Made by a program: the position numbers and the translations under genes
From: a virus
Lineage: Duplodnaviria; Caudoviricetes
IMG/VR virus record: IMGVR_UViG_3300044843_000038
Location: 1-37,240 of that record
Strand: one strand, 5' to 3'
Length of the DNA: 37,240 nucleotides
In this document: in pieces, positions 8,943-19,913 of the stretch
Numbering within the stretch: the stretch's first letter is position 1
Layout of the letters: each line of letters begins with the position of its first letter
Notes under the pieces: generated by a model
What the model was told of the DNA's origin: nothing
The model's input: only the letters and a program-made list of their open reading frames with translations
The model's database searches: none

Positions 8943-9121
8943 AGCAACTCCTTTATGTGCTCAGGAACCTTTGGTAGCGGAGCCCAGGCAACCGCCCAAT
9001 CCGACCAATGCCCGATCACACAGACCCCTCCAGGGTTCAGCAAAAGCATCTTAGTTCCCAGTGGAGGTGTTTTGTCACTCGGTGTCATCCAGTGGGTATG
9101 CCCTGAAACGTAGTCTTTCAT
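8939..9121 (-). CDS. DUF551-like small protein
   Basis: W...DKTPP.G...AVAWAPLPKVP; ATGA-coupled start at 9121. Confidence 0.7.
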   Translation of the reverse strand: MKDYVSGHTHWMTPSDKTPPLGTKMLLLNPGGVCVIGHWSDWAVAWAPLPKVPEHIKELL

Positions 9122-9432
9122 TGCTTCCTCCGGTAATACCAGGCCCAAGCACCATGCCTTCCCTCTGTCCACCTATACCGAGATTCTCTCTCTATCAATC
9201 CCTTTGACATCAAGACCTTTAGATGCTTCCTTGCTCCCTCTGTTGTGCATCCAAAGTGCTCTGATAGCTCGATGAGCGAGTAAGGTTGAGTAAGATGGGC
9301 GAGATAGATCTTCTCGGTCTTTGTCAGCGGTTTATGTTTACGGAGAATCTGTTTCACCAACCACTTGACTTGATCGGTGTGGTGAACGATTCCGAGGTTG
9401 TGCGCCATCCGTTGGATTTCAGCTCCGTTCAT
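9118..9432 (-). CDS. Winged helix-turn-helix protein
   Basis: SLIELSEHFGCTTEGARKHLKVLMSKGLIER. Confidence 0.75.
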   Translation of the reverse strand: MNGAEIQRMAHNLGIVHHTDQVKWLVKQILRKHKPLTKTEKIYLAHLTQPYSLIELSEHFGCTTEGARKHLKVLMSKGLIERESRYRWTEGRHGAWAWYYRRKQ

Positions 9433-10062: not shown

Positions 10063-10364
10063 GTGTTTTTATCCTTTAATTTAGCTTCGACATAGTTGGC
10101 AAACGCTTTGCACCAACCTTCCGGGTCATCGTTCCAATCCTGACTGGCATCGTATTCAGCGTGACAAAAGGCATCGTGAATATCATCGCCAGTAAGCCCG
10201 ACCCATTCACGCGGCGCAGCGTAAAGTTTTGCGCCAACCTCAATCCCACTTGCATCATCCCAGGCAACACAAGGTCTACCGTTTGGTTCAATCCGGTAAA
10301 CGTGAGCCACAGAATCATCTTCAGCCATGCCCTGCAACCTGTCAGTCATCTGTCTTTTCTTCAT
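10059..10364 (-). CDS. Hypothetical protein, paralogous C-terminus to 9670..10062
   Basis: LYAAPREWVGLT...EAKLKDKN. Confidence 0.8.
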   Translation of the reverse strand: MKKRQMTDRLQGMAEDDSVAHVYRIEPNGRPCVAWDDASGIEVGAKLYAAPREWVGLTGDDIHDAFCHAEYDASQDWNDDPEGWCKAFANYVEAKLKDKNT

Positions 10365-10681
10365 GATGCCCTCAGATTGAAAGGGTTGTTGAAATTGATC
10401 TCAAATACTTCCTCGACCGACCCGTTTTGCAGAATCTTCTTCTTCACTTTTGAGTCTGCTGCTAGATAAGAATAAGAGAGCCCCGCTTTCTTGGCAGGCG
10501 AAGATTGCTTCCAGACCATGCCCCTAATGACTTTGCCATCCAAGATGAGAGGCTCTAACGAGTTCTGGATAGACCGCGGGCTGACTTTTAACTTCTCTGC
10601 GAGTTCAATAGTCGTAACCGGTGTTGTTCTTGACTGTAGGTACTTTAGACAAAACTCACCCCTGCTAACCTTTTGTCTCAT
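10361..10681 (-). CDS. Winged helix-turn-helix protein
   Basis: VTTIELAEKLKVSPRSIQNSLEPLILDGKVIR; C-terminal NNPFNL. Confidence 0.75.
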   Translation of the reverse strand: MRQKVSRGEFCLKYLQSRTTPVTTIELAEKLKVSPRSIQNSLEPLILDGKVIRGMVWKQSSPAKKAGLSYSYLAADSKVKKKILQNGSVEEVFEINFNNPFNLRAS

Positions 10682-10842: not shown

Positions 10843-11201
10843 GCTGCCCTCAGCTTCTCTGAGATCCTTGCCTTCCAAGAGTTCCAATCCTCTCCTGGCC
10901 TAGCTGGACAATTTACCTTTGCCGCCATCTCGGCAGTACCCTTCTCTGTAGCCCACCACACCACAACCTTCTCTTGTGTAGGTGCGATCTCTAGCTCATC
11001 TTCCCATCTTCCCTGGTTCAGCCAGGTAGCAGGATGCGGAATAAACTCCTGACCTGTTCCCTTCACCTGGTAATACTTGTTATGCGTCACCAGAGCCTCT
11101 ACAGCGGACTTTTGCTCACTAGGCGATAGTTTGTTCCATGCCTTCTGTGCAGCGCGTTTAGCGACCTTTCTTGGGTACTTACTCCAGAACTCTTCAAACA
11201 T
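10839..11201 (-). CDS. Replication-initiator C-terminal-like protein (no N-terminal HTH)
   Basis: FEEFWSKYPRKVAK..A.KAW...FIPHPATWLNQGRWEDE, typical of phage replisome-organiser C-termini; strong AGGAGG RBS. Confidence 0.8.
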   Translation of the reverse strand: MFEEFWSKYPRKVAKRAAQKAWNKLSPSEQKSAVEALVTHNKYYQVKGTGQEFIPHPATWLNQGRWEDELEIAPTQEKVVVWWATEKGTAEMAAKVNCPARPGEDWNSWKARISEKLRAA

Positions 11202-11265
11202 AAAACCTCCTGTGTTGGAGTTTTTACTGTAGACCTTTTTTTAATTGTTGAATGTCGCTGAAATG
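11202..11265 (-). promoter_or_regulatory. AT-rich leader with candidate -10 (TACAGT) and RBS-occluding hairpin
   Basis: AAAAACTCC-AACACA-GGAGGTTTT imperfect inverted repeat covering the RBS; A-tract upstream. Confidence 0.4.
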
Positions 11266-11269
11266 ACAT

Positions 11270-12085
11270 TTAATCCCCACAAAAGCAAGCCATAGCTTCT
11301 TCATCATCGCTAAACATGTCGGTTTGTTGCTCGCTGAACTTGAGCATCTCTGCATATCCTGCGCGATCTTTTCTGAACCTTGCCCCGCTCGGCTTCGATG
11401 CCAACGCCAACGCCTCCATCTTTGCCCACCAGATCGCTCGTTCTGGCTTTTCTTTAATGAGCGTAAATATTTGATTCGCAGGCTTTAGATAGCAAAGATC
11501 ACAATTGCCAGCGAGCGTTCTTCCTTGATAAGTCGGAAGGTTCAGATTAAAAGACTGCTTCGACCAAAATTTATTGACATCGTGAACAGTAATGCCAGCA
11601 GCAACCAACGGAGTGCGAGACCTGTCAATCTTTGCTGCGCGTCTGGCCTCATCCGCTCGTATACCGACCCAATCACTTGTTTCGTTGTGATCCCATTCAA
11701 GTGACTTTAAATACTTGTGAATGGTTCGGATCTTTAGTTCAGAAGTGCAAAATCTAGTCACTGGATTTGGCAAATAGCTGCGCTTAACAATCAAAGCCTC
11801 AAAAGGTTCGCCGTTCCTGCTTGCTGTTGAAAAATTGACTCGTTCAAATGATGGGTCTGCATTGCGATATTCGACCCAATGAATCTCTACGCCCCAGTGT
11901 TTCTCGCAGTCGCGCACAAACTCTAATGTCGCTTCCTCTTCCTTGCCTGTGTTTGCAAAACAAACAATCGCGTCATCAGGTAAACCATTGTTAGATTGCA
12001 AGACTCTCCAAAGCATGTAAGCACTAGTCCTGCCTCCTGAAAAACTAATGCAAGTAGGCTCGGTAATGCGGAAAGGATCAGACAT
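11270..12085 (-). CDS. PAPS-reductase-like (PP-loop) protein, 271 aa
   Basis: CISFSGGRTS, FANTGKE, CTSELKI, GIRADE, NCDLC; start revised to ATG 12085 with GAGG RBS. Confidence 0.88.
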   Translation of the reverse strand: MSDPFRITEPTCISFSGGRTSAYMLWRVLQSNNGLPDDAIVCFANTGKEEEATLEFVRDCEKHWGVEIHWVEYRNADPSFERVNFSTASRNGEPFEALIVKRSYLPNPVTRFCTSELKIRTIHKYLKSLEWDHNETSDWVGIRADEARRAAKIDRSRTPLVAAGITVHDVNKFWSKQSFNLNLPTYQGRTLAGNCDLCYLKPANQIFTLIKEKPERAIWWAKMEALALASKPSGARFRKDRAGYAEMLKFSEQQTDMFSDDEEAMACFCGD

Positions 12086-12097
12086 AGATATGTTCCT

Positions 12098-12315
12098 CGC
12101 AAAGACCCCCCTACCCCCAACGGGAGTAGAGAGAGATGGTTCCTCGGACGTTACCGTCATCTGCATGTGCCTTTCGACACCCCTCGGCTTGCAGATTCGA
12201 CCAGCCGCTGGATTCTTACGGATTTGCACCGGCTCACAAACATCGTGGCTTACCAGTAACCCTCTTCTTGTCAGCAGTCGGGATAACTCATTGCTTACGC
12301 GGACAGTACGGTCAG
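12098..12315 (-). ncRNA. Putative ~220-nt structured RNA
   Basis: GUGUC-GAAA-GGCAC and GACG-GUAA-CGUC GNRA hairpins, AUCUGCA/UGCAGAU helix, AGCCG/CGGCU helix, 3' G:U-rich hairpin. Confidence 0.65.
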
Positions 12316-12326
12316 CGCCAAAAGCA

Positions 12327-12435
12327 AAACCCCAGAACACTTAGGAGGGGCATGGCCCTTGGCATGGGCAATTACGCAGTCTCAGGAAGAAAGACCTTGT
12401 AACCACACAAGCCCCACCTAAACATTCTGGGGTTT
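12327..12435 (-). ncRNA. Cloverleaf RNA resembling P1 C4 / P4 CI antisense RNAs
   Basis: ~25-bp closing stem with three G:U pairs on the minus strand, enclosing three small hairpins whose loops match leader sequences. Confidence 0.7.
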
Positions 12436-12470
12436 ACTTCCTGGCTGCCAGTTGCCACGCTGACAGAACG

Positions 12471-12498
12471 ACTATATCACATCTCTATGACCTTACAA
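12471..12498 (-). promoter_or_regulatory. Sigma70 promoter with extended -10
   Basis: TTGTAA-N16-TATAGT with TG at the extended -10 position, immediately upstream of hairpin 12445..12466. Confidence 0.65.
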
Positions 12499-12827
12499 GT
12501 CCACCCTTCCTTTAGCTTGCCCCAGCCATGAACCTCTATCTTCCAGCCTGCTCTCAAGATAGCCGGAAGATGCTCACACTCGCTTATCTTCTTCACCCTA
12601 GCGTTGATATTGGCCCTGCTCGTTGTCTGCACCAGCAGCGTCTCTTCGTCTCTGAGGCAAAGTATGTCTCCGATACTGAAAAGGTCTTGTCGAATACGAG
12701 CCCAAGGGTTCCAGTGCTCGACTATTTGGCATAAATAACCTCGCTCCCTAAGTAAGGCTAGAGACCTCTGAGTAGGACTAACTGACGAACGGCGTGTTTT
12801 CTTGGTGTCAGTGGCAGAGATTGTCAT
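12477..12827 (-). CDS. PD-(D/E)XK-fold nuclease, Holliday-junction-resolvase-like
   Basis: LRERGY...DLFSIGDILCL...LLVQTT...AGWKIEVHGW. Confidence 0.65.
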   Translation of the reverse strand: MTISATDTKKTRRSSVSPTQRSLALLRERGYLCQIVEHWNPWARIRQDLFSIGDILCLRDEETLLVQTTSRANINARVKKISECEHLPAILRAGWKIEVHGWGKLKEGWTCKVIEM

Positions 12828-12912
12828 CGTGACGACAGTCTTAAAGGTTTTATTCGGTCAATATACACCCATGCAAACGAACTTATTAACCCGCTCTTCA
12901 AAGGAGATTCAA

Positions 12913-13089
12913 ATGAGCGACTTCCAAGTTCTTCCCTTCGATTTCTCAGCAACCACAGTTACTTTCGTGGCTAACAACACAAACGCTAAAGACCGCATTT
13001 GCGGCGGCGTTTCCTGCGAAGTTCGCAAGTCTGCTGCACCAGAGTTTGCAGCAAAACTCGAAGCTGAAGGCTTCACAGTTTCTTACTAA
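12913..13089 (+). CDS. Hypothetical early protein (58 aa)
   Basis: AAGGAG RBS then ATG 12913; first gene of the plus-strand block. Confidence 0.8.
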   Translation: MSDFQVLPFDFSATTVTFVANNTNAKDRICGGVSCEVRKSAAPEFAAKLEAEGFTVSY

Positions 13090-13094
13090 TAACC

Positions 13095-13110
13095 AGGGGC
13101 TCCGGCCCCT
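13095..13110 (+). other. GC-rich intergenic hairpin
   Basis: AGGGGC-TCCG-GCCCCT perfect stem, no U-tract. Confidence 0.65.
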
Positions 13111-13124
13111 ACCAGGAGAGCAAC

Positions 13125-13295
13125 ATGAAGATCACACTTACAGAAACCGAAGTCGCAAAGATCGTAGAAGATTTTTTTGATCTTAAGTACAAAATGAAGA
13201 TCACATCAACTGTGTTTCGCGCGAGCTACTCGTACAGCTCAGTTGATTTCTGCACACTTTCAACAGACGCAGAGGATAAAAAAGATGAACTATGA
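13125..13295 (+). CDS. Hypothetical protein (56 aa, MKITLTETEVAKIV...)
   Basis: AGGAG RBS; manual translation. Confidence 0.78.
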   Translation: MKITLTETEVAKIVEDFFDLKYKMKITSTVFRASYSYSSVDFCTLSTDAEDKKDEL

Positions 13296-13410
13296 CTGGT
13301 GGCTAGATAGACAACTTTGGGAATACGACAGGGAGAGAGAACGTGAGCACCAACAACAGCTGGAACAACAGGAGTTTGAACTTGGAGAAATGGAAACCGA
13401 CGAGGAGTGA
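13285..13410 (+). CDS. Acidic micro-protein (41 aa, MNYDWWLDRQLWEYD...ETDEE)
   Basis: GAGG RBS; overlaps upstream stop. Confidence 0.7.
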   Translation: MNYDWWLDRQLWEYDREREREHQQQLEQQEFELGEMETDEE

Positions 13411-13474
13411 TTGGATCTTATGCACGCTATTGGGAATATTCTACGGAACGCTGCTCTTCCTGTTCATAAAGTAA
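13382..13474 (+). CDS. 30-aa single-TM peptide (MEKWKPTRSDWILCTLLGIFYGTLLFLFIK)
   Basis: AGGAG 7 nt before TTG; hydrophobic stretch; stop abuts the next RBS. Confidence 0.55.
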   Translation: MEKWKPTRSDWILCTLLGIFYGTLLFLFIK

Positions 13475-13485
13475 AGGAGCCAAAC

Positions 13486-14016
13486 ATGAAATTCGCTGAA
13501 CTAAACAAAATCAACGTCAACAGCAAGATCGAGAAGAAAAACAACCTGTCGTATCTATCCTGGGCATGGGCTGTAGAACAACTTTTGCTTAACGATCCCT
13601 CTGCTACGTGGGAGTACAAGCCTCACCAAATATGGAATGAGACGGTCATGGTGTTCTGCGAGGTCAAAGCATTTGGAGTTTCTCGCACTGCACAACTTCC
13701 GGTTATGGACCACAGAAACAAGGCGATCTCTAATCCTGATGCTTTTGCAGTCAATACGGCTATGCAAAGGTGTTTAGCAAAGGCAATAGCTTTACACGGC
13801 ATCGGTTTGTATATCTATGCTGGAGAAGATCTTCCTTCAGAGGAAAAGGTCGATGAGCTTGAGGCCTACAAGGCAAAACTCGAAGCAGCAGAGTCTTTAG
13901 ACGCGCTTAAGGCTGAGTTCTCTCCGGCCTACAAAGCCATGAAAGACAAGCCAGAAATAAAAGAACTCGTCGCTGTTTACGAAGCCAAGAAGAAAGCACT
14001 TACGGAAGTCAAATGA
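13486..14016 (+). CDS. sak: Sak/Rad52-like single-strand annealing protein (DUF1071)
   Basis: LSYLSWAWA, LPVMDHRNKA, AMQRCLAKAIALHGIGLYIYAGEDLP; ATG 13486 with AGGAG. Confidence 0.9.
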   Translation: MKFAELNKINVNSKIEKKNNLSYLSWAWAVEQLLLNDPSATWEYKPHQIWNETVMVFCEVKAFGVSRTAQLPVMDHRNKAISNPDAFAVNTAMQRCLAKAIALHGIGLYIYAGEDLPSEEKVDELEAYKAKLEAAESLDALKAEFSPAYKAMKDKPEIKELVAVYEAKKKALTEVK

Positions 14017-16234: not shown

Positions 16235-16475
16235 ATCTTCGGACGTTGAGGAGATCGCGGCAGCGTATGAGAAAGCGCTGCCGTTTGTCGTTCAGGATTG
16301 GGCGAAGATGATCCTAAAACTTCCTAGGACTAAAAGACTCCCAATTATCGAGAAGATAGACAGGGTTCACGGAGACAAGATTGGGCAAATGGTCAGGGAC
16401 GAAGTCACCGCGCAACACCGCGACTTTTCTCGAAAGACCTCATCCCAGCAATCCCCAACATCCCGCTCAAAATAA
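16200..16475 (+). CDS. Hypothetical protein
   Basis: GTG start, AAGGA upstream; last gene of the plus-strand block. Confidence 0.7.
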   Translation: MASWINLIKQVKSSDVEEIAAAYEKALPFVVQDWAKMILKLPRTKRLPIIEKIDRVHGDKIGQMVRDEVTAQHRDFSRKTSSQQSPTSRSK

Positions 16476-16818
16476 CCCATAGCGCGTCTGTGTCGAGCAT
16501 GGGAGGAGGCGATACCTCACGAGGAACATAACCCTCTGCCTGCAACCAGGTCCATGCCCAAACAAGTAAAGGGTAAAGCAGGAACTGGTAAAACATCGCA
16601 CCTGCACCAACCCAACCAATAGCAGGTCTCCAGCCGGCAACGAATAAGTTTTGGTTCGCAGCCTCGACCTTGTTGACTTCCATCTGACCGAGATCAATAG
16701 CCTGGTCAATGCGTTTGGCTTCGAGCTCAAGCTGCATCCGCTCTTTATCGGTTGTTATCAGGTCCGATGCGACCTTACCAACAGACTCGATCACCGACCC
16801 TATGCCTAAGAAGTTCAT
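16405..16818 (-). CDS. Holin of 3TMs (GTA-holin-like)
   Basis: NKVEA...FVAGWRPAIGW...GMLGIAGMRSFEK; ATGA-coupled to endolysin. Confidence 0.88.
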   Translation of the reverse strand: MNFLGIGSVIESVGKVASDLITTDKERMQLELEAKRIDQAIDLGQMEVNKVEAANQNLFVAGWRPAIGWVGAGAMFYQFLLYPLLVWAWTWLQAEGYVPREVSPPPMLDTDALWVILSGMLGIAGMRSFEKSRGVAR

Positions 16819-17324
16819 AATTTCAACGTCCGATTTAGCCAACCAAGTAAAAACTTCATCTGGCTTCTGTCTCTGGTCACGATGTCACGATAACGAGCGA
16901 TCTTTGCAAGCGCGTAGTAGGCCACAAATAGCTCAGGATTGGCTTGGTTGAGTGCTTGTACGGTCTTGGGTCCAATAGAACCGTCTGGAGCGGTTTTAAC
17001 GCATATCTGGGCGAGTTTAGAAGCGACAGAAACGCCTGTGTTGACTGCAAAGTTAAAGATAGAAGAAGCGATTACGTCTGACTCAATTTCATCGCCTCTG
17101 ATCTTGTTCCAGAAATTGACTTTGTAGAAGTCTCGGACCATTTGAGTAGGAGGTGTCTCTGTGTAGTCAATGTACTGCCAACCCTCCCAGTTAGGATTCA
17201 TCTTGCGAGCAATACCTGCGTAGGTCATTCCACCTCGATCACCAGGAACCTCATGGAGAACGTAACCGCCCTCGTCCTCCATCATCTTATCGAAAGCCGA
17301 CTCAAAGCTAGCCAATTGCTTCAC
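16815..17324 (-). CDS. Endolysin, glycoside hydrolase family 108 with C-terminal PG-binding domain
   Basis: EGGY...DRGGMTYAGI, FNFAVNTG, DGSIGPKT, GWLNR. Confidence 0.93.
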   Translation of the reverse strand: MKQLASFESAFDKMMEDEGGYVLHEVPGDRGGMTYAGIARKMNPNWEGWQYIDYTETPPTQMVRDFYKVNFWNKIRGDEIESDVIASSIFNFAVNTGVSVASKLAQICVKTAPDGSIGPKTVQALNQANPELFVAYYALAKIARYRDIVTRDRSQMKFLLGWLNRTLKL

Positions 17325-18246
17325 CCCTAAAATAAGCGGTTCCTTCTATAACCTCGCATAACTCCGGTGGAAGAAGCCTACCGTTTTGGAACTTTAGAAT
17401 CGCAAAGCCCTGACACCAAGGAACGGGATTATCCTCCATGTAATTAAACTGATCGCCATCAGGATCTGCAAGCATACCCGTAGACACACCATATCGACGA
17501 CCAGTGTAGTCGCCCCAACCTTTGACTTCTAAGAGGTGGGTATGCCCTGAGACGGTAGAGATGCCAGCTTTCAGGACATTGTTGTATCCAGAGTGGATGC
17601 CCCCGTGCTGAAGTCGATGCTTAACCATGCAGACCTCGTTGACCATCACCGACCAAGATACCGTCCATTCTGGGATATGGTCCTTAAGACATGTTCCACC
17701 GATACCCTTGAACTCAGGAACCTGCCCTGCCAAACGCCTATCGAAGCGTATATCGTGGTTTCCTGTTGTTCTATGCAGGAATGTTCCTAGACCCTTACAA
17801 GCCTTGACGATCTTATCCATGTGCCACTGGACCGCTTCGAGTTCATCCCTAAGACTCGCAACAGGACTCCAATCCATAGGACCGTATCTTGAGATGGTCC
17901 CTCCGTCCAAGATGTCGCCGTTAGCAATAATTGCTTTAGGCTTGAGCATCTTGATAACTTTAAGAAGCGCGTTAAACCCTACAGAAGGCTCGCCAGGCAT
18001 AAAGTGAGCGTCACTAAAAACCAAGACGTAACCATCAACGGTTAGGATAGACCTTTTGGCGTTTTGAGGAATAGTAAGAGAGTGATCTGAGTCGAGGAAT
18101 AAACCGTAACGTGACTCGATAGACCTGCGCCTGGCGTAGACACTGCGCTGCGAAGTTTTAAGAGCTCTTGCAACCGCAGCAGGACTTTTTAGCTCTCGGA
18201 ATAGCGCGATGAACTCATCGTCGCTGCATTTTGCGTTGTGAACCAT
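17308..18246 (-). CDS. Calcineurin-like metallophosphoesterase with N-terminal HTH-like segment
   Basis: SDAH, NGDILD, GNHD, GHTH motifs. Confidence 0.9.
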   Translation of the reverse strand: MVHNAKCSDDEFIALFRELKSPAAVARALKTSQRSVYARRRSIESRYGLFLDSDHSLTIPQNAKRSILTVDGYVLVFSDAHFMPGEPSVGFNALLKVIKMLKPKAIIANGDILDGGTISRYGPMDWSPVASLRDELEAVQWHMDKIVKACKGLGTFLHRTTGNHDIRFDRRLAGQVPEFKGIGGTCLKDHIPEWTVSWSVMVNEVCMVKHRLQHGGIHSGYNNVLKAGISTVSGHTHLLEVKGWGDYTGRRYGVSTGMLADPDGDQFNYMEDNPVPWCQGFAILKFQNGRLLPPELCEVIEGTAYFRGEAIG

Positions 18247-18490
18247 GAAGCCCCCAGTGCTCGACGCTTTGGATCATCTTTCGCGGGATCACTAGCGATT
18301 GAGCTATTGCGTCATCCGTAACGGACTGACAAATCTTCAGGCCACGCTCATTATCTGCAACTAAAAAGCCAATTGAAGTAACAAGCGGAATCTGAAACTC
18401 GGCGGCTTTTTCGAGGCTTTCACCCCACCCTAAAGTGTCATGCGCTGCATCTTCCCAAACTACTTTAACTATCTGAGGGAGATTTTTCAT
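18215..18490 (-). CDS. Hypothetical phage protein
   Basis: V.WEDA...W...SIGFL...IPR motif pattern; packed in the lysis region. Confidence 0.75.
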   Translation of the reverse strand: MKNLPQIVKVVWEDAAHDTLGWGESLEKAAEFQIPLVTSIGFLVADNERGLKICQSVTDDAIAQSLVIPRKMIQSVEHWGLHGSQRKMQRR

Positions 18491-18683
18491 TCTTCTTGTC
18501 TTTTATCGCGTGATACCACTTCCAGACAAGCCAACCGGATTGAAGCACAATATATAACAACGTGGCAAGTGCAACCCATTCATTGAGTGTTAATCCACCA
18601 ACAGTAACAGCCGTTGTTATGGCTATGGGAGGCGCTGCTTTTACAGCTTCCGTGATGACATCAGACTTTTGTTCCGGCGACAT
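18465..18683 (-). CDS. Putative holin
   Basis: GLTLNEWVALATLLYIVLQ hydrophobic segment, basic C-tail, first gene of the lysis block. Confidence 0.7.
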   Translation of the reverse strand: MSPEQKSDVITEAVKAAPPIAITTAVTVGGLTLNEWVALATLLYIVLQSGWLVWKWYHAIKDKKNEKSPSDS

Positions 18684-18690
18684 GACAACC

Positions 18691-19350
18691 TCATACGGCT
18701 ACTTTACGAATGGCTCTCACAACTAAGGATTGATTCTTAGCGTTGTTGAACTGACCACCGTCTATAAAGTCAATCCTCGTCGCTGTTGTCAAACCTACAC
18801 CTGCATTGGTAGAACTCCATGTTCTTGCTGACGTAGCAAAGGCTTCAGAGCCACCAGATTGAAAGGCAGCTACAGAGGTTTGTGCAGGCGTTCCTGTTGT
18901 GTAGTTAGAGCCTCTGGAAGGCACTGCATAAGAATTAGTGCCGTAAGACGTAGAGTTGGATGCCGTTGTCGGTTTCAGGTTGTAGTAACAGATCTCTAAT
19001 TCATACAAAGCAGGCAGATACCAGTCTGAGTAGCCGTTGATTGTTAGTGCGGCACACCACTGAGCAGCAGGATAAGTAGCTGAGTCTAGCTCTGCTGTGT
19101 TAGTCGCCCCATCGTAAGAAGATAAACCTAAAGAGTCTGAGGTTGCAGCGGTCTTGTAGTTGATAGACGCGTTCTCACCTGATGACTTAGGCGAGACAAG
19201 TAGGTAATAGGTATTGCCACCAAAGGAGATCTGTCCTGCGTAGTAGCCACCCTCCCAGAACTCACCGATAGCAGACGGTCCAAAGCGATTACGAGCACCT
19301 GGGCCAAAACCTCTGACAGAACCGCCTCCTAATGCTTCTAGGACAGGCAT
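18691..19350 (-). CDS. DUF1566/Lcl-like (C-type lectin fold) virion-associated protein
   Basis: GYSDWYLPALYEL...TWSST...VVRAIRK. Confidence 0.75.
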   Translation of the reverse strand: MPVLEALGGGSVRGFGPGARNRFGPSAIGEFWEGGYYAGQISFGGNTYYLLVSPKSSGENASINYKTAATSDSLGLSSYDGATNTAELDSATYPAAQWCAALTINGYSDWYLPALYELEICYYNLKPTTASNSTSYGTNSYAVPSRGSNYTTGTPAQTSVAAFQSGGSEAFATSARTWSSTNAGVGLTTATRIDFIDGGQFNNAKNQSLVVRAIRKVAV

Positions 19351-19913
19351 TATGCGTACCTGGATTGACTAGCCAAGACAGTAAATGCTGCTGATCCTGT
19401 CTTGATGATGGAGTAGGAATACACGTCGATAGAACTAGCATTACCCGCGGTAGGAGCAGTACCACCTAGCCATTTAGGTGTAACCGATGAACCATCTACT
19501 TGCACCGCAGAGTTGTAGTAAGCAGTGCTTCCATTAGTGACTAAGAAGGCACAGGTTAAGACTTCTCCGGTCGCCATTGCGGTATTCAGTGACGTACCAG
19601 AAGAGGCTCTGAAGTTAACTGTAAAGTTCCCAGAGGCATTGGTTGTGTAGTACAGAACGCCTTGGGTTGTCGTGTCAAAGTTAATCGTACCTGTTGCTGC
19701 TGTTGCTGATACCGTGATTGTCTCAACAACACCTTGCAGCTTTGCACCGATCTGCGAGGATGTGGATGCTAGAGAGAGTTGTTTAGCAAAGGTTGCAGCC
19801 TGTGCAGAGGAAATCGTAAGTGCTAGCGTACCTCCGGTCTTGACCTCAAGAATGTCTGTGTTGTCAGACGTAATCGAGGTTCCAGCGGTAGCTGCATTAA
19901 GGACGTTAGCCAT
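19350..19913 (-). CDS. Tail-fibre-related structural protein
   Basis: Thr/Ser/Ala-rich; KWLGGTAPT...DVYSY motif of fibre C-terminal domains. Confidence 0.7.
   Translation of the reverse strand: MANVLNAATAGTSITSDNTDILEVKTGGTLALTISSAQAATFAKQLSLASTSSQIGAKLQGVVETITVSATAATGTINFDTTTQGVLYYTTNASGNFTVNFRASSGTSLNTAMATGEVLTCAFLVTNGSTAYYNSAVQVDGSSVTPKWLGGTAPTAGNASSIDVYSYSIIKTGSAAFTVLASQSRYA

Follow-up and report, generated by a model that had tools for sequence, protein, structure and literature searches.

In temperate coliphages, RNAs of the C4/CI type constitute one of the known layers of immunity. The C4 alignment of Weinberg places P1 C4, P4 CI and N15 CA in a single family, in which a' resides in a hairpin loop and is followed by b' in the junction, and the targets are arranged in the order b, within a loop, and then a (PMC2864571). 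P4 CI stops the expression of the replication genes by termination via seqA upstream and seqC downstream (PMC4825925). The C4 RNA comprises 77 nt, which serves as the basis of analogy for the mature RNA proposed below, and the versions of phages P1 and P7 differ by four changes in a' (PMC5320573). Both C4 and CA act beneath a protein repressor, where their role is to shut down an antirepressor operon (PMC5320573, PMC8198154). Here we describe an element of a freshwater phage which likely works like C4/CI yet stands outside the Rfam C4 family, and which is regarded as a well-supported, uncatalogued variant of C4/CI-type control.

The element is located on the minus strand of a complete phage record of 37.2 kb, which in its full length of 37,240 nt is referred to as the window. 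A sequence-only reading of the window had proposed a C4/CI-like antisense RNA, and most of its parts were confirmed on the sequence: the promoter, the leader hairpin (12445-12466), the CAGGAAG motif (12437-12443) and a stem of about 25 bp with 25-nt arms at 12411-12435 and 12327-12351 are present at the positions claimed, as is the complementarity of CUUCCUG to CAGGAAG and of UGCCA to UGGCA (Table 1). The promoter pattern alone does not exceed chance (3 sites vs 2.4 expected). A -10-like hexamer is found 4-9 nt ahead of the leader in 60 of 66 family members, compared to 8.5 at control offsets, and transcription would start near 12464. The region 12325-12437 folds with a z-score of -6.6, and none of 200 shuffled sequences was equally stable; 12 of 100,000 shuffled leaders carry both target sites in order, the pattern having been chosen after the fact. 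The leader hairpin contains one compensatory pair in three of the eight closest sequences. Of the three hairpins that had been placed within the long stem, two remain. In the eight closest sequences, two of the five pairs of the GUGGUU hairpin are broken in three members and compensatory changes do not occur, whereas an alternative helix, GGUUAC/GUAAUU, stays paired throughout (100%) and includes one compensatory change, and the fold that includes it is more stable by 6.5 kcal/mol. Thus, the core of the element is a three-way junction formed by P1, P2 and P3. The UUGGCG sequence at 12316-12321, suggested as a further pairing partner, is present in the window but is not a conserved target, as UGGCR occurs 3' of the stem in only 16 of the 66 members, and a second target for a was not found downstream in the window. 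What is retained 3' of the stem is a GCUGAC-like segment able to pair with the 5' end of the transcript. This pairing, the U-tract behind the long stem and the module swap with a conventional initiator described below had not been part of the sequence-only reading. At three loci (L090, L109, L157), an extra gene is located between the upstream gene and the RNA cassette.

Table 1. Positions of the element and of the features that follow it in the window.
Feature	Position	Strand	Remarks
Sigma-70-type promoter, extended -10	12471-12498	-	TTGTAA-16-TG-N-TATAGT; overlaps the end of the 116-aa gene lying upstream (12477-12827)
Leader hairpin	12447-12464 (12445-12466 in the sequence-only reading)	-	Loop CGUGGCAA; site b = UGGCA (12453-12457) in the loop; 5' strand X = 12458-12464
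Variable target a	12437-12449	-	Core CAGGAAG 12437-12443; co-varies with a'
P1, long interrupted stem	12326-12436	-	5' arm 12408-12436, 3' arm 12326-12354; closes the three-way junction; predicted terminator hairpin
P2 arm with a'	12370-12404	-	CUUCCUG 12383-12389 and ACUGC 12376-12380; from fold and co-variation
P3	12355-12369	-	4-bp stem, 7-nt loop AUGCCAA = b' (12359-12365); T-arm-like
Predicted mature RNA, ~74 nt	12342-12415	-	8-bp acceptor-like stem on 4-bp stem; putative ends
U-tract	12320-12329	-	Directly 3' of P1
Y = CGCUGAC	12311-12317	-	Complementary to X
Region 2, second structured RNA, ~230 nt	12090-12315	-	T-loop-like GGUGCAAAUCC, GNRA hairpins, last hairpin with G-tract 12106-12118
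Cargo gene, PAPS-reductase-like	11270-12085	-	phrog_424; the slot holds other genes in relatives
Headless initiator, 120 aa	10839-11201	-	phrog_270 positions 179-257 of 383; C-terminal initiator part only

Relatives were collected using a pattern that consisted of P3 and the 3' arm of P1 only, which yielded 114 viral loci; a first pattern that included the window phage's own barcode had returned seven loci, five near-identical relatives and two chance matches. Applied to all collected loci, the pattern gave 125 matches, 109 of which were parsed, resulting in 66 distinct a/a' pairs. In the other 16, no stem or leader was recognized; they were dropped and seem to comprise chance matches, truncated contigs and several genuine members that escaped the parser, four of which were scored at 63-90 bits by R1, the model of the antisense RNA built in this analysis. 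As the P3 loop belonged to the search pattern, its invariance within type A is imposed. Site b reads YGGCA in all 66 parsed members, which was demanded by the parser and not by the search pattern, and is unpaired in the free fold of 57 of them.

An antisense arrangement is supported by the variable sites. The a/a' duplexes of the 66 pairs have a mean energy of -25.3 kcal/mol with the own target and of -13.6 kcal/mol with foreign targets, and the own target ranks best in 34 and among the top three in 49 of the 66 members (0 of 10,000 permutations, in a test that ignores relatedness); the cognate rank is poor in some members (20, 35, 56 and others), in part due to parser errors. Among six alleles of the closest subfamily, the scaffold is 94% identical, while identity drops to 29% in a and 44% in a', and in a 7-by-7 matrix every leader binds the arm of its own allele best. 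Similarly, the 60 distinct X/Y pairs average -10.4 for own vs -8.3 for foreign partners (permutation 0/10,000). A sister type, E, behaves alike, with -15.1 for own and -9.2 for foreign partners among 49 distinct a/a' pairs (permutation 0/10,000), 13 of which are misparsed and were left in; these pairs stem from 100 loci with 103 matches, 34 of which were dropped, and R1 scores type E weakly (E 0.02-0.16). The b/b' pair is invariant within type A, partly by construction, and co-varies between the types: UGGCA/UGCCA in type A, UGACR/UGUCA in type E, three matched variants in type B (GUGGAAG/CUUCCAC, GUGGUAG/CUACCAC and GUGGUG/CACCAC) and five matched variants in type C. Accordingly, the loop-target co-variation on which the sequence-only reading had staked its proposal is borne out across relatives, for a/a' within types A and E and for b/b' between types. 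A genome-wide scan of the window for trans targets of a' gave no site that stood out. Taken together, the element is real and represents one of 66 distinct versions of a well-supported, uncatalogued RNA of aquatic phages without an Rfam match. Our literature search retrieved no description of this RNA family. Fremin et al. mined the same viral collection (PMC10690425), and as their alignments lie outside the coverage of that search, parts of the family may already be listed there. In five type B loci (L125, L131, L132, L133, L142) and one type C locus (L101), a pyrimidine-rich variable hairpin looks by eye complementary to the ribosome-binding site of the headless initiator at the same locus; judged from these letters, the ribosome-binding site is a possible second, translational target of the type B/C hairpin.

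Like C4, CI and CA, the element forms a three-stem junction with the variable a' located 5' of b', and its upstream targets, b in a hairpin loop and then a, co-vary with the RNA. The proposed likeness to C4/CI thus holds for the antisense arrangement, i.e. the co-variation and the site order of P1 C4, P4 CI and N15 CA, but not for membership in the Rfam C4 or c4-2 families: cmscan gave no C4 (RF01695) or c4-2 match at the gathering threshold in the window, and no rows for C4-type models were obtained at E <= 10 in the region 11900-12950, at E <= 1 in 18 type A loci or at E <= 5 in one type B locus. In contrast to the known members, the element has no UUCG-type first hairpin, type A possesses one long arm, and its b' lies in a 7-nt hairpin loop, whereas that of C4 lies in the junction; in type B the junction b' is present and the UUCG hairpin is absent. 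As for P4 CI, the small RNA is located inside the leader of a replication operon, with a' and then b' pairing with an upstream b-loop and then a (PMC4825925, PMC3632133, PMC2864571), and termination is the likely output, with no protein repressor needed (PMC4825925). Unlike P4 CI and P1 C4, the element has no conserved downstream target (a2-b2 or seqC). It also differs from P4 CI in that its P1 stem itself ends in a U-tract, that a second large RNA follows, and that nearly all carriers lack an integrase. Three stems and a variable a' that sets specificity are shared with C4 of P1/P7 and CA of N15 (PMC5320573, PMC8198154), but the a' arm is longer here, with a duplex of up to ~25 bp, which invades the leader hairpin by at least 2 nt in 65 of 66 members; in addition, the antirepressor, icd and a cI-type gene, which belong to the described C4 and CA settings, were not found here. 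The b' of phage P1, UGUCAA, is identical to the type E loop and one base off the UGCCAA of the window, and the type B leader loops equal loops given for c4-a1b1 in the supplement (PMC2864571). A functional parallel is offered by STnc6030 of BTP1, a phage RNA with phage-specific superinfection exclusion, which is structurally unlike the element, being a 786-nt true antisense RNA to late genes of a prophage with cI (PMC7067206).

How might such an RNA act? Directly behind P1, a U-tract is found in types A, B, C and E, with 3.6 T in 5 nt beyond the four imposed by the pattern in the 66 type A members, and with T5-T7, which was not imposed, in all 11 distinct type B and C ends. Given this position, P1 is a likely intrinsic terminator with a very large loop. 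Folding snapshots of the window transcript were calculated from equilibrium energies at selected lengths. At 123 nt, the most stable structure is a cis duplex between the leader and a'/b', which encloses the 5' arm of P1; P1 prevails at 139 nt, and X:Y appears at 160 nt. When 12 nt of the 3' arm are made, the probability of the inner stem is below 0.5 in 46 of the 66 members with their own leader, in 22 with foreign leaders and in 3 with a blocked leader. At earlier cut points the contrast fades, as the blocked leader leaves the inner stem below 0.5 in 52 of 66 (6 nt) and 33 of 66 (9 nt), and for the window itself the inner stem reaches a probability of only 0.53 with the leader blocked and 9 nt of the 3' arm. 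From the snapshots and the U-tract we infer a cis antiterminator that would be defeated in trans by a processed copy of the RNA, much as P4 CI forces termination ahead of replication genes (PMC4825925). We propose, at a probability of roughly 0.6, that the leader RNA acts as a termination switch with sequence specificity, whose processed copies would attach to newly made transcripts and thereby silence the downstream genes. The element likely works as a protein-free, self-specific off-switch in the manner of C4/CI.

According to the order seen in the sequence and its relatives, the transcript would begin at the promoter and pass through the leader with b and then a, P1 enclosing a' and then b', the U-tract, the second RNA and the replication genes. 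During synthesis, the leader is predicted by folding to pair in cis with a'/b' and to lock the 5' arm of P1, resulting in read-through of the U-tract. By analogy with C4/CI, RNase P and 3' trimming would release a stable RNA of ~74 nt; a 12-bp geometry suggestive of the RNase P ruler is found in the closest subfamily (8 sequences) only, while a count of acceptor lengths across the family was uninformative. Accumulated RNA is then predicted to dock on loop b and to zip along a in nascent leaders, preventing the cis pairing, so that P1 would close and transcription would stop near 12322, which would also yield more precursor. The X:Y pairing might serve to reset transcripts that have passed the U-tract, or to change how region 2 folds. 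As a consequence, expression of the replication genes would be limited late in infection or at high copy number, and a co-infecting phage with the same barcode would be blocked while one with another barcode would remain unaffected. Such exclusion would explain why a/a' have diversified on a fixed scaffold.

As the complementarity is equal in cis and in trans, it is solely this diversification that argues for trans action, and it matches the published case of P1 and P7 (PMC5320573). A purely cis-acting folding switch or timer, in which the leader pairs with a'/b' of the same molecule and no free antisense RNA arises, would be in line with the fact that all pairings are possible in cis, with the lack of a second target and with the lack of a processed RNA among public contigs, which cannot show ends. 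However, such a switch offers no reason for the divergence of a/a' to 29-44% on a scaffold that is 94% identical, and the T-arm-like hairpin on an acceptor-like stem as well as the kinship to C4 point to processing; we consider it improbable. Even less credit is due to the idea that the element is a tRNA mimic or decoy, directed against host anticodon nucleases or serving as a punctuation mark for RNase P, or a leader-peptide attenuator, with the complementarity being secondary. The acceptor-like and T-like stems and the AGGAAG preceding the AUG at 12425 would be consistent with these functions, but ARAGORN finds no tRNA in the element of the window, the four-way cloverleaf and the D arm are absent, and the length of the variable arm differs across members. 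A leader mini-ORF starting from AUG 12425 was rejected since Shine-Dalgarno sequence and ATG occur together in only 6 of the 66 members, and the co-variation of the leader would be left unexplained by either function.

The termination switch would gate what lies behind it, and the claimed place of the element ahead of a downstream RNA and an initiator was confirmed: it heads a replication operon in which a PAPS-reductase-like gene is followed by the gene for the headless initiator of 120 aa. In region 2, two-sided changes occur in 15 of the 36 predicted pairs (13 sequences); the folding energy is ordinary (z = 0.05), and a search of region 2 against Rfam gave no match. Its last hairpin is flanked by a direct repeat (12139-12146 and 12092-12099), and its G strand does not change among the members, for whose selection the G-tract was used, whereas the partner strand varies between C and U. 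The region-2 family of the window is uncatalogued and was also observed in L095, L103, L181, L217, L221, L232, L244, L283, L080 and L158; by eye, the letters of the 7-9-nt direct repeat vary between members and match within each. A second uncatalogued region-2 family of ~250 nt comprises 33 distinct sequences (L091, L179, L205, L240, L259 and others) and shows apparent co-varying long-range pairs, including a segment near the 3' end for which two alternative partners, copies of each other, exist upstream; the members scanned gave no Rfam match. A further region-2 family (5 loci) is Betaproteobacteria-1 (RF02932), for which the window has no match. In these loci (L028-L030, L260, L280) the motif starts right after Y, and as conservation extends ~110 nt past the model, a longer RNA probably exists, of which Rfam covers the 5' half.

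The interval separating region 2 from the headless initiator is a hot spot for cargo, occupied by PAPS-reductase-like, queuine tRNA-ribosyltransferase-like, HNH and methyltransferase genes. A reading of 12340-12086 as an N-terminal extension of the cargo gene was dismissed, as the frame is broken in L095 and L115. The headless protein is predicted with a pLDDT of 85.7. It has no Foldseek match at E <= 0.001, its best profile search result has an E of 0.15, and the best structural comparisons (VIA, Z 5.6; SPP1 G39P, Z 4.2, rmsd 2.5 over 55 residues) are uninformative and exclude no family.

Among 80 loci fetched via the Sak gene, i.e. blind to the RNA, 46 carry an antisense cassette (3 of type A, 20 of type B and 23 of type C), 20 carry int-alpA and 14 neither. 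Cassette or int-alpA stands behind the same upstream gene, and in close relatives int-alpA (RF02996, without a match in the window) fills the slot of the cassette behind the same promoter region; Rfam lists both int-alpA and Betaproteobacteria-1 as sRNAs. Immediately behind int-alpA comes a complete DUF1376 initiator, the linker of which is encoded by repeats; most cassettes are followed by a non-coding stretch of 230-280 nt that belongs to several families and is mixed freely with the cassette type. Within 3 kb of 157 cassette matches, in which contigs fetched twice are counted twice, a headless initiator was found in 79 and a borderline one in a single case; 20 matches had none in at least 1.5 kb, and 57 were too short. 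Of the 80 loci with an initiator domain in the 3 kb following a cassette, 79 have the headless form, and this domain occurs in none of 21 int-alpA loci. In 34 whole records of 30 kb or more (31 with cassette, 3 with int-alpA), DUF1376 was present in 3/3 int-alpA and 0/31 cassette records, and the headless domain in 17/31 cassette and 0/3 int-alpA records. In close relatives, cassette, ~230-nt RNA and headless initiator jointly alternate with int-alpA and the full DUF1376 initiator, which makes an RNA-based origin possible. In three loci (L150, 3055-3123; L114, 2260-2328; L008, 1032-1099), int-alpA lies directly ahead of the start of the DUF1376 initiator. The sequence immediately ahead of the start codon seems able to pair with bases in the second loop of int-alpA, and these bases vary from allele to allele, suggesting that int-alpA, too, controls translation of the initiator.

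In ColE1, a replicon without a DNA-binding initiator, a small tRNA-like inhibitor, RNA I, whose loops encode incompatibility, lies ahead of a larger structured RNA with a G-rich tract and is transcribed antisense. The present locus would share this layout; in contrast to ColE1, its inhibitor would derive from the very strand that it controls, part of an initiator persists as a short domain, and priming is hypothetical. A search for a consensus promoter on the plus strand in 11000-13500, which is a weak test, found none. By this comparison, region 2 might be a pre-primer or origin RNA that replaces the DNA-binding domain of the initiator and its iterons, with the antisense RNA controlling its synthesis or folding. 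Copy control and incompatibility groups would be predicted; the idea is compatible with the termination switch and differs in what is gated. It would fit the distribution of cassette and int-alpA among the Sak-fetched loci, the association of the headless domain with the cassette and of DUF1376 and its repeat-coded linker with int-alpA, the non-coding stretch behind most cassettes and, among members picked by the G-tract, the fixed G strand. The ARRPOF and PAGEV motifs of 223-349 nt provide a precedent for structured RNAs tied to plasmid replication (PMC5737381). However, L203 carries a type A cassette ahead of a 236-aa O-like initiator and DnaB, and phages of 57-65 kb have ParB-like and helicase genes behind the cassette, so the cassette accompanies replication genes of several kinds. 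Furthermore, the headless domain is absent in 14 of the 31 cassette records and the G-tract is confined to one region-2 family. The GC-skew minimum of the window at 12-13 kb proves nothing, as it coincides with a switch of gene strand. We therefore regard ColE1-like control as rather unlikely, although less so than a switch acting solely in cis.

Parts of the region 11900-13100 are contained in 24 public runs, 21 of which are recorded as RNA. Among four runs examined, two from different studies contain contigs of 339 nt (12100-12438) and 341 nt (12101-12440), and a third has a 238-nt contig inside the 12100-12440 span; the small shares present in the remaining 20 runs do not count as evidence. 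At most, these contigs hint weakly at a single RNA that starts in P1 and extends to where region 2 ends: contigs of RNA libraries also cover genes across the whole stretch, so that DNA or lytic transcripts are present, and a contig spanning 12100-12440 as one piece fits read-through as well as DNA. They gave no sign of a 74-nt or 143-nt species, although contigs cannot show ends.

The gene content of the phage bears on the setting of the proposed termination switch. The record has a terminal overlap of 127 nt and is classed as having direct terminal repeats; matches to PHROGs include portal, terminase, capsid, ejection, lysis and Sak/exonuclease genes. That the phage would lack repressor and integrase, as proposed from the sequence, is supported: no integrase, repressor or antirepressor was found by PHROGs among its 62 proteins, and integrase, S24 repressor, HTH_3 over the cut-off, ParA and resolvase were not detected in the genome. 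In the 34 whole records, a tyrosine integrase occurs in two, both of type E, HTH_3 exceeds the cut-off in one, which is not the window, and S24, ParA and resolvase were each found in 0/34. A plasmid-like carrier state of the window phage, which had been suggested as well, is unsupported. Downstream in the operon, two small winged-helix-like proteins are encoded on the minus strand (9118-9432 and 10361-10681), both below Pfam cut-offs, which may have a regulatory role. The best matches of the capsid protein are freshwater-spring phages (78%) and, among cultured phages, the Methylophilales phage Venkman (56% identical); as the Venkman genome gave no match to R1, the host of the window phage is not deduced from it. 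The element had no blastn match among GenBank phages and plasmids, and one scan of prokaryote genomes gave two matches, both on MAG contigs. L283, in which phage DNA meets host-like DNA at a GC step, was rejected as a prophage, since none of 31 ORFs scanned encodes an integrase and misassembly is possible. On the same contig, a diversity-generating retroelement with reverse transcriptase, Avd and tail protein is located at 16382-19386 (minus strand), the phage segment being joined to host-like DNA of an Akkermansiaceae MAG.

A design related to C4 is the only visible regulator ahead of the replication genes in a large group of phages from aquatic habitats, most of which have neither integrase nor repressor (an integrase occurs in 2 of 34 records), and dozens of barcodes are carried on one fixed scaffold. 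As a natural allele series, these represent a ready set of orthogonal RNA terminator switches. It might even be speculated, albeit with considerable doubt, that the locus is a protein-free replicon and immunity module of non-integrating aquatic phages, in which a C4-like RNA bearing a barcode controls a large RNA, and the latter serves as origin or primer in place of the initiator's iterons and DNA-binding domain. Both RNAs would recombine freely into many incompatibility groups, and the phage would persist or compete in the cell without repressor, integrase or partition system. If the second RNA indeed replaces the DNA-binding domain of the initiator, a function would be provided for orphan motifs such as Betaproteobacteria-1. 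More generally, the findings suggest that even phages regarded as strictly lytic may recognize and shut out phages of their own kind by RNA alone.
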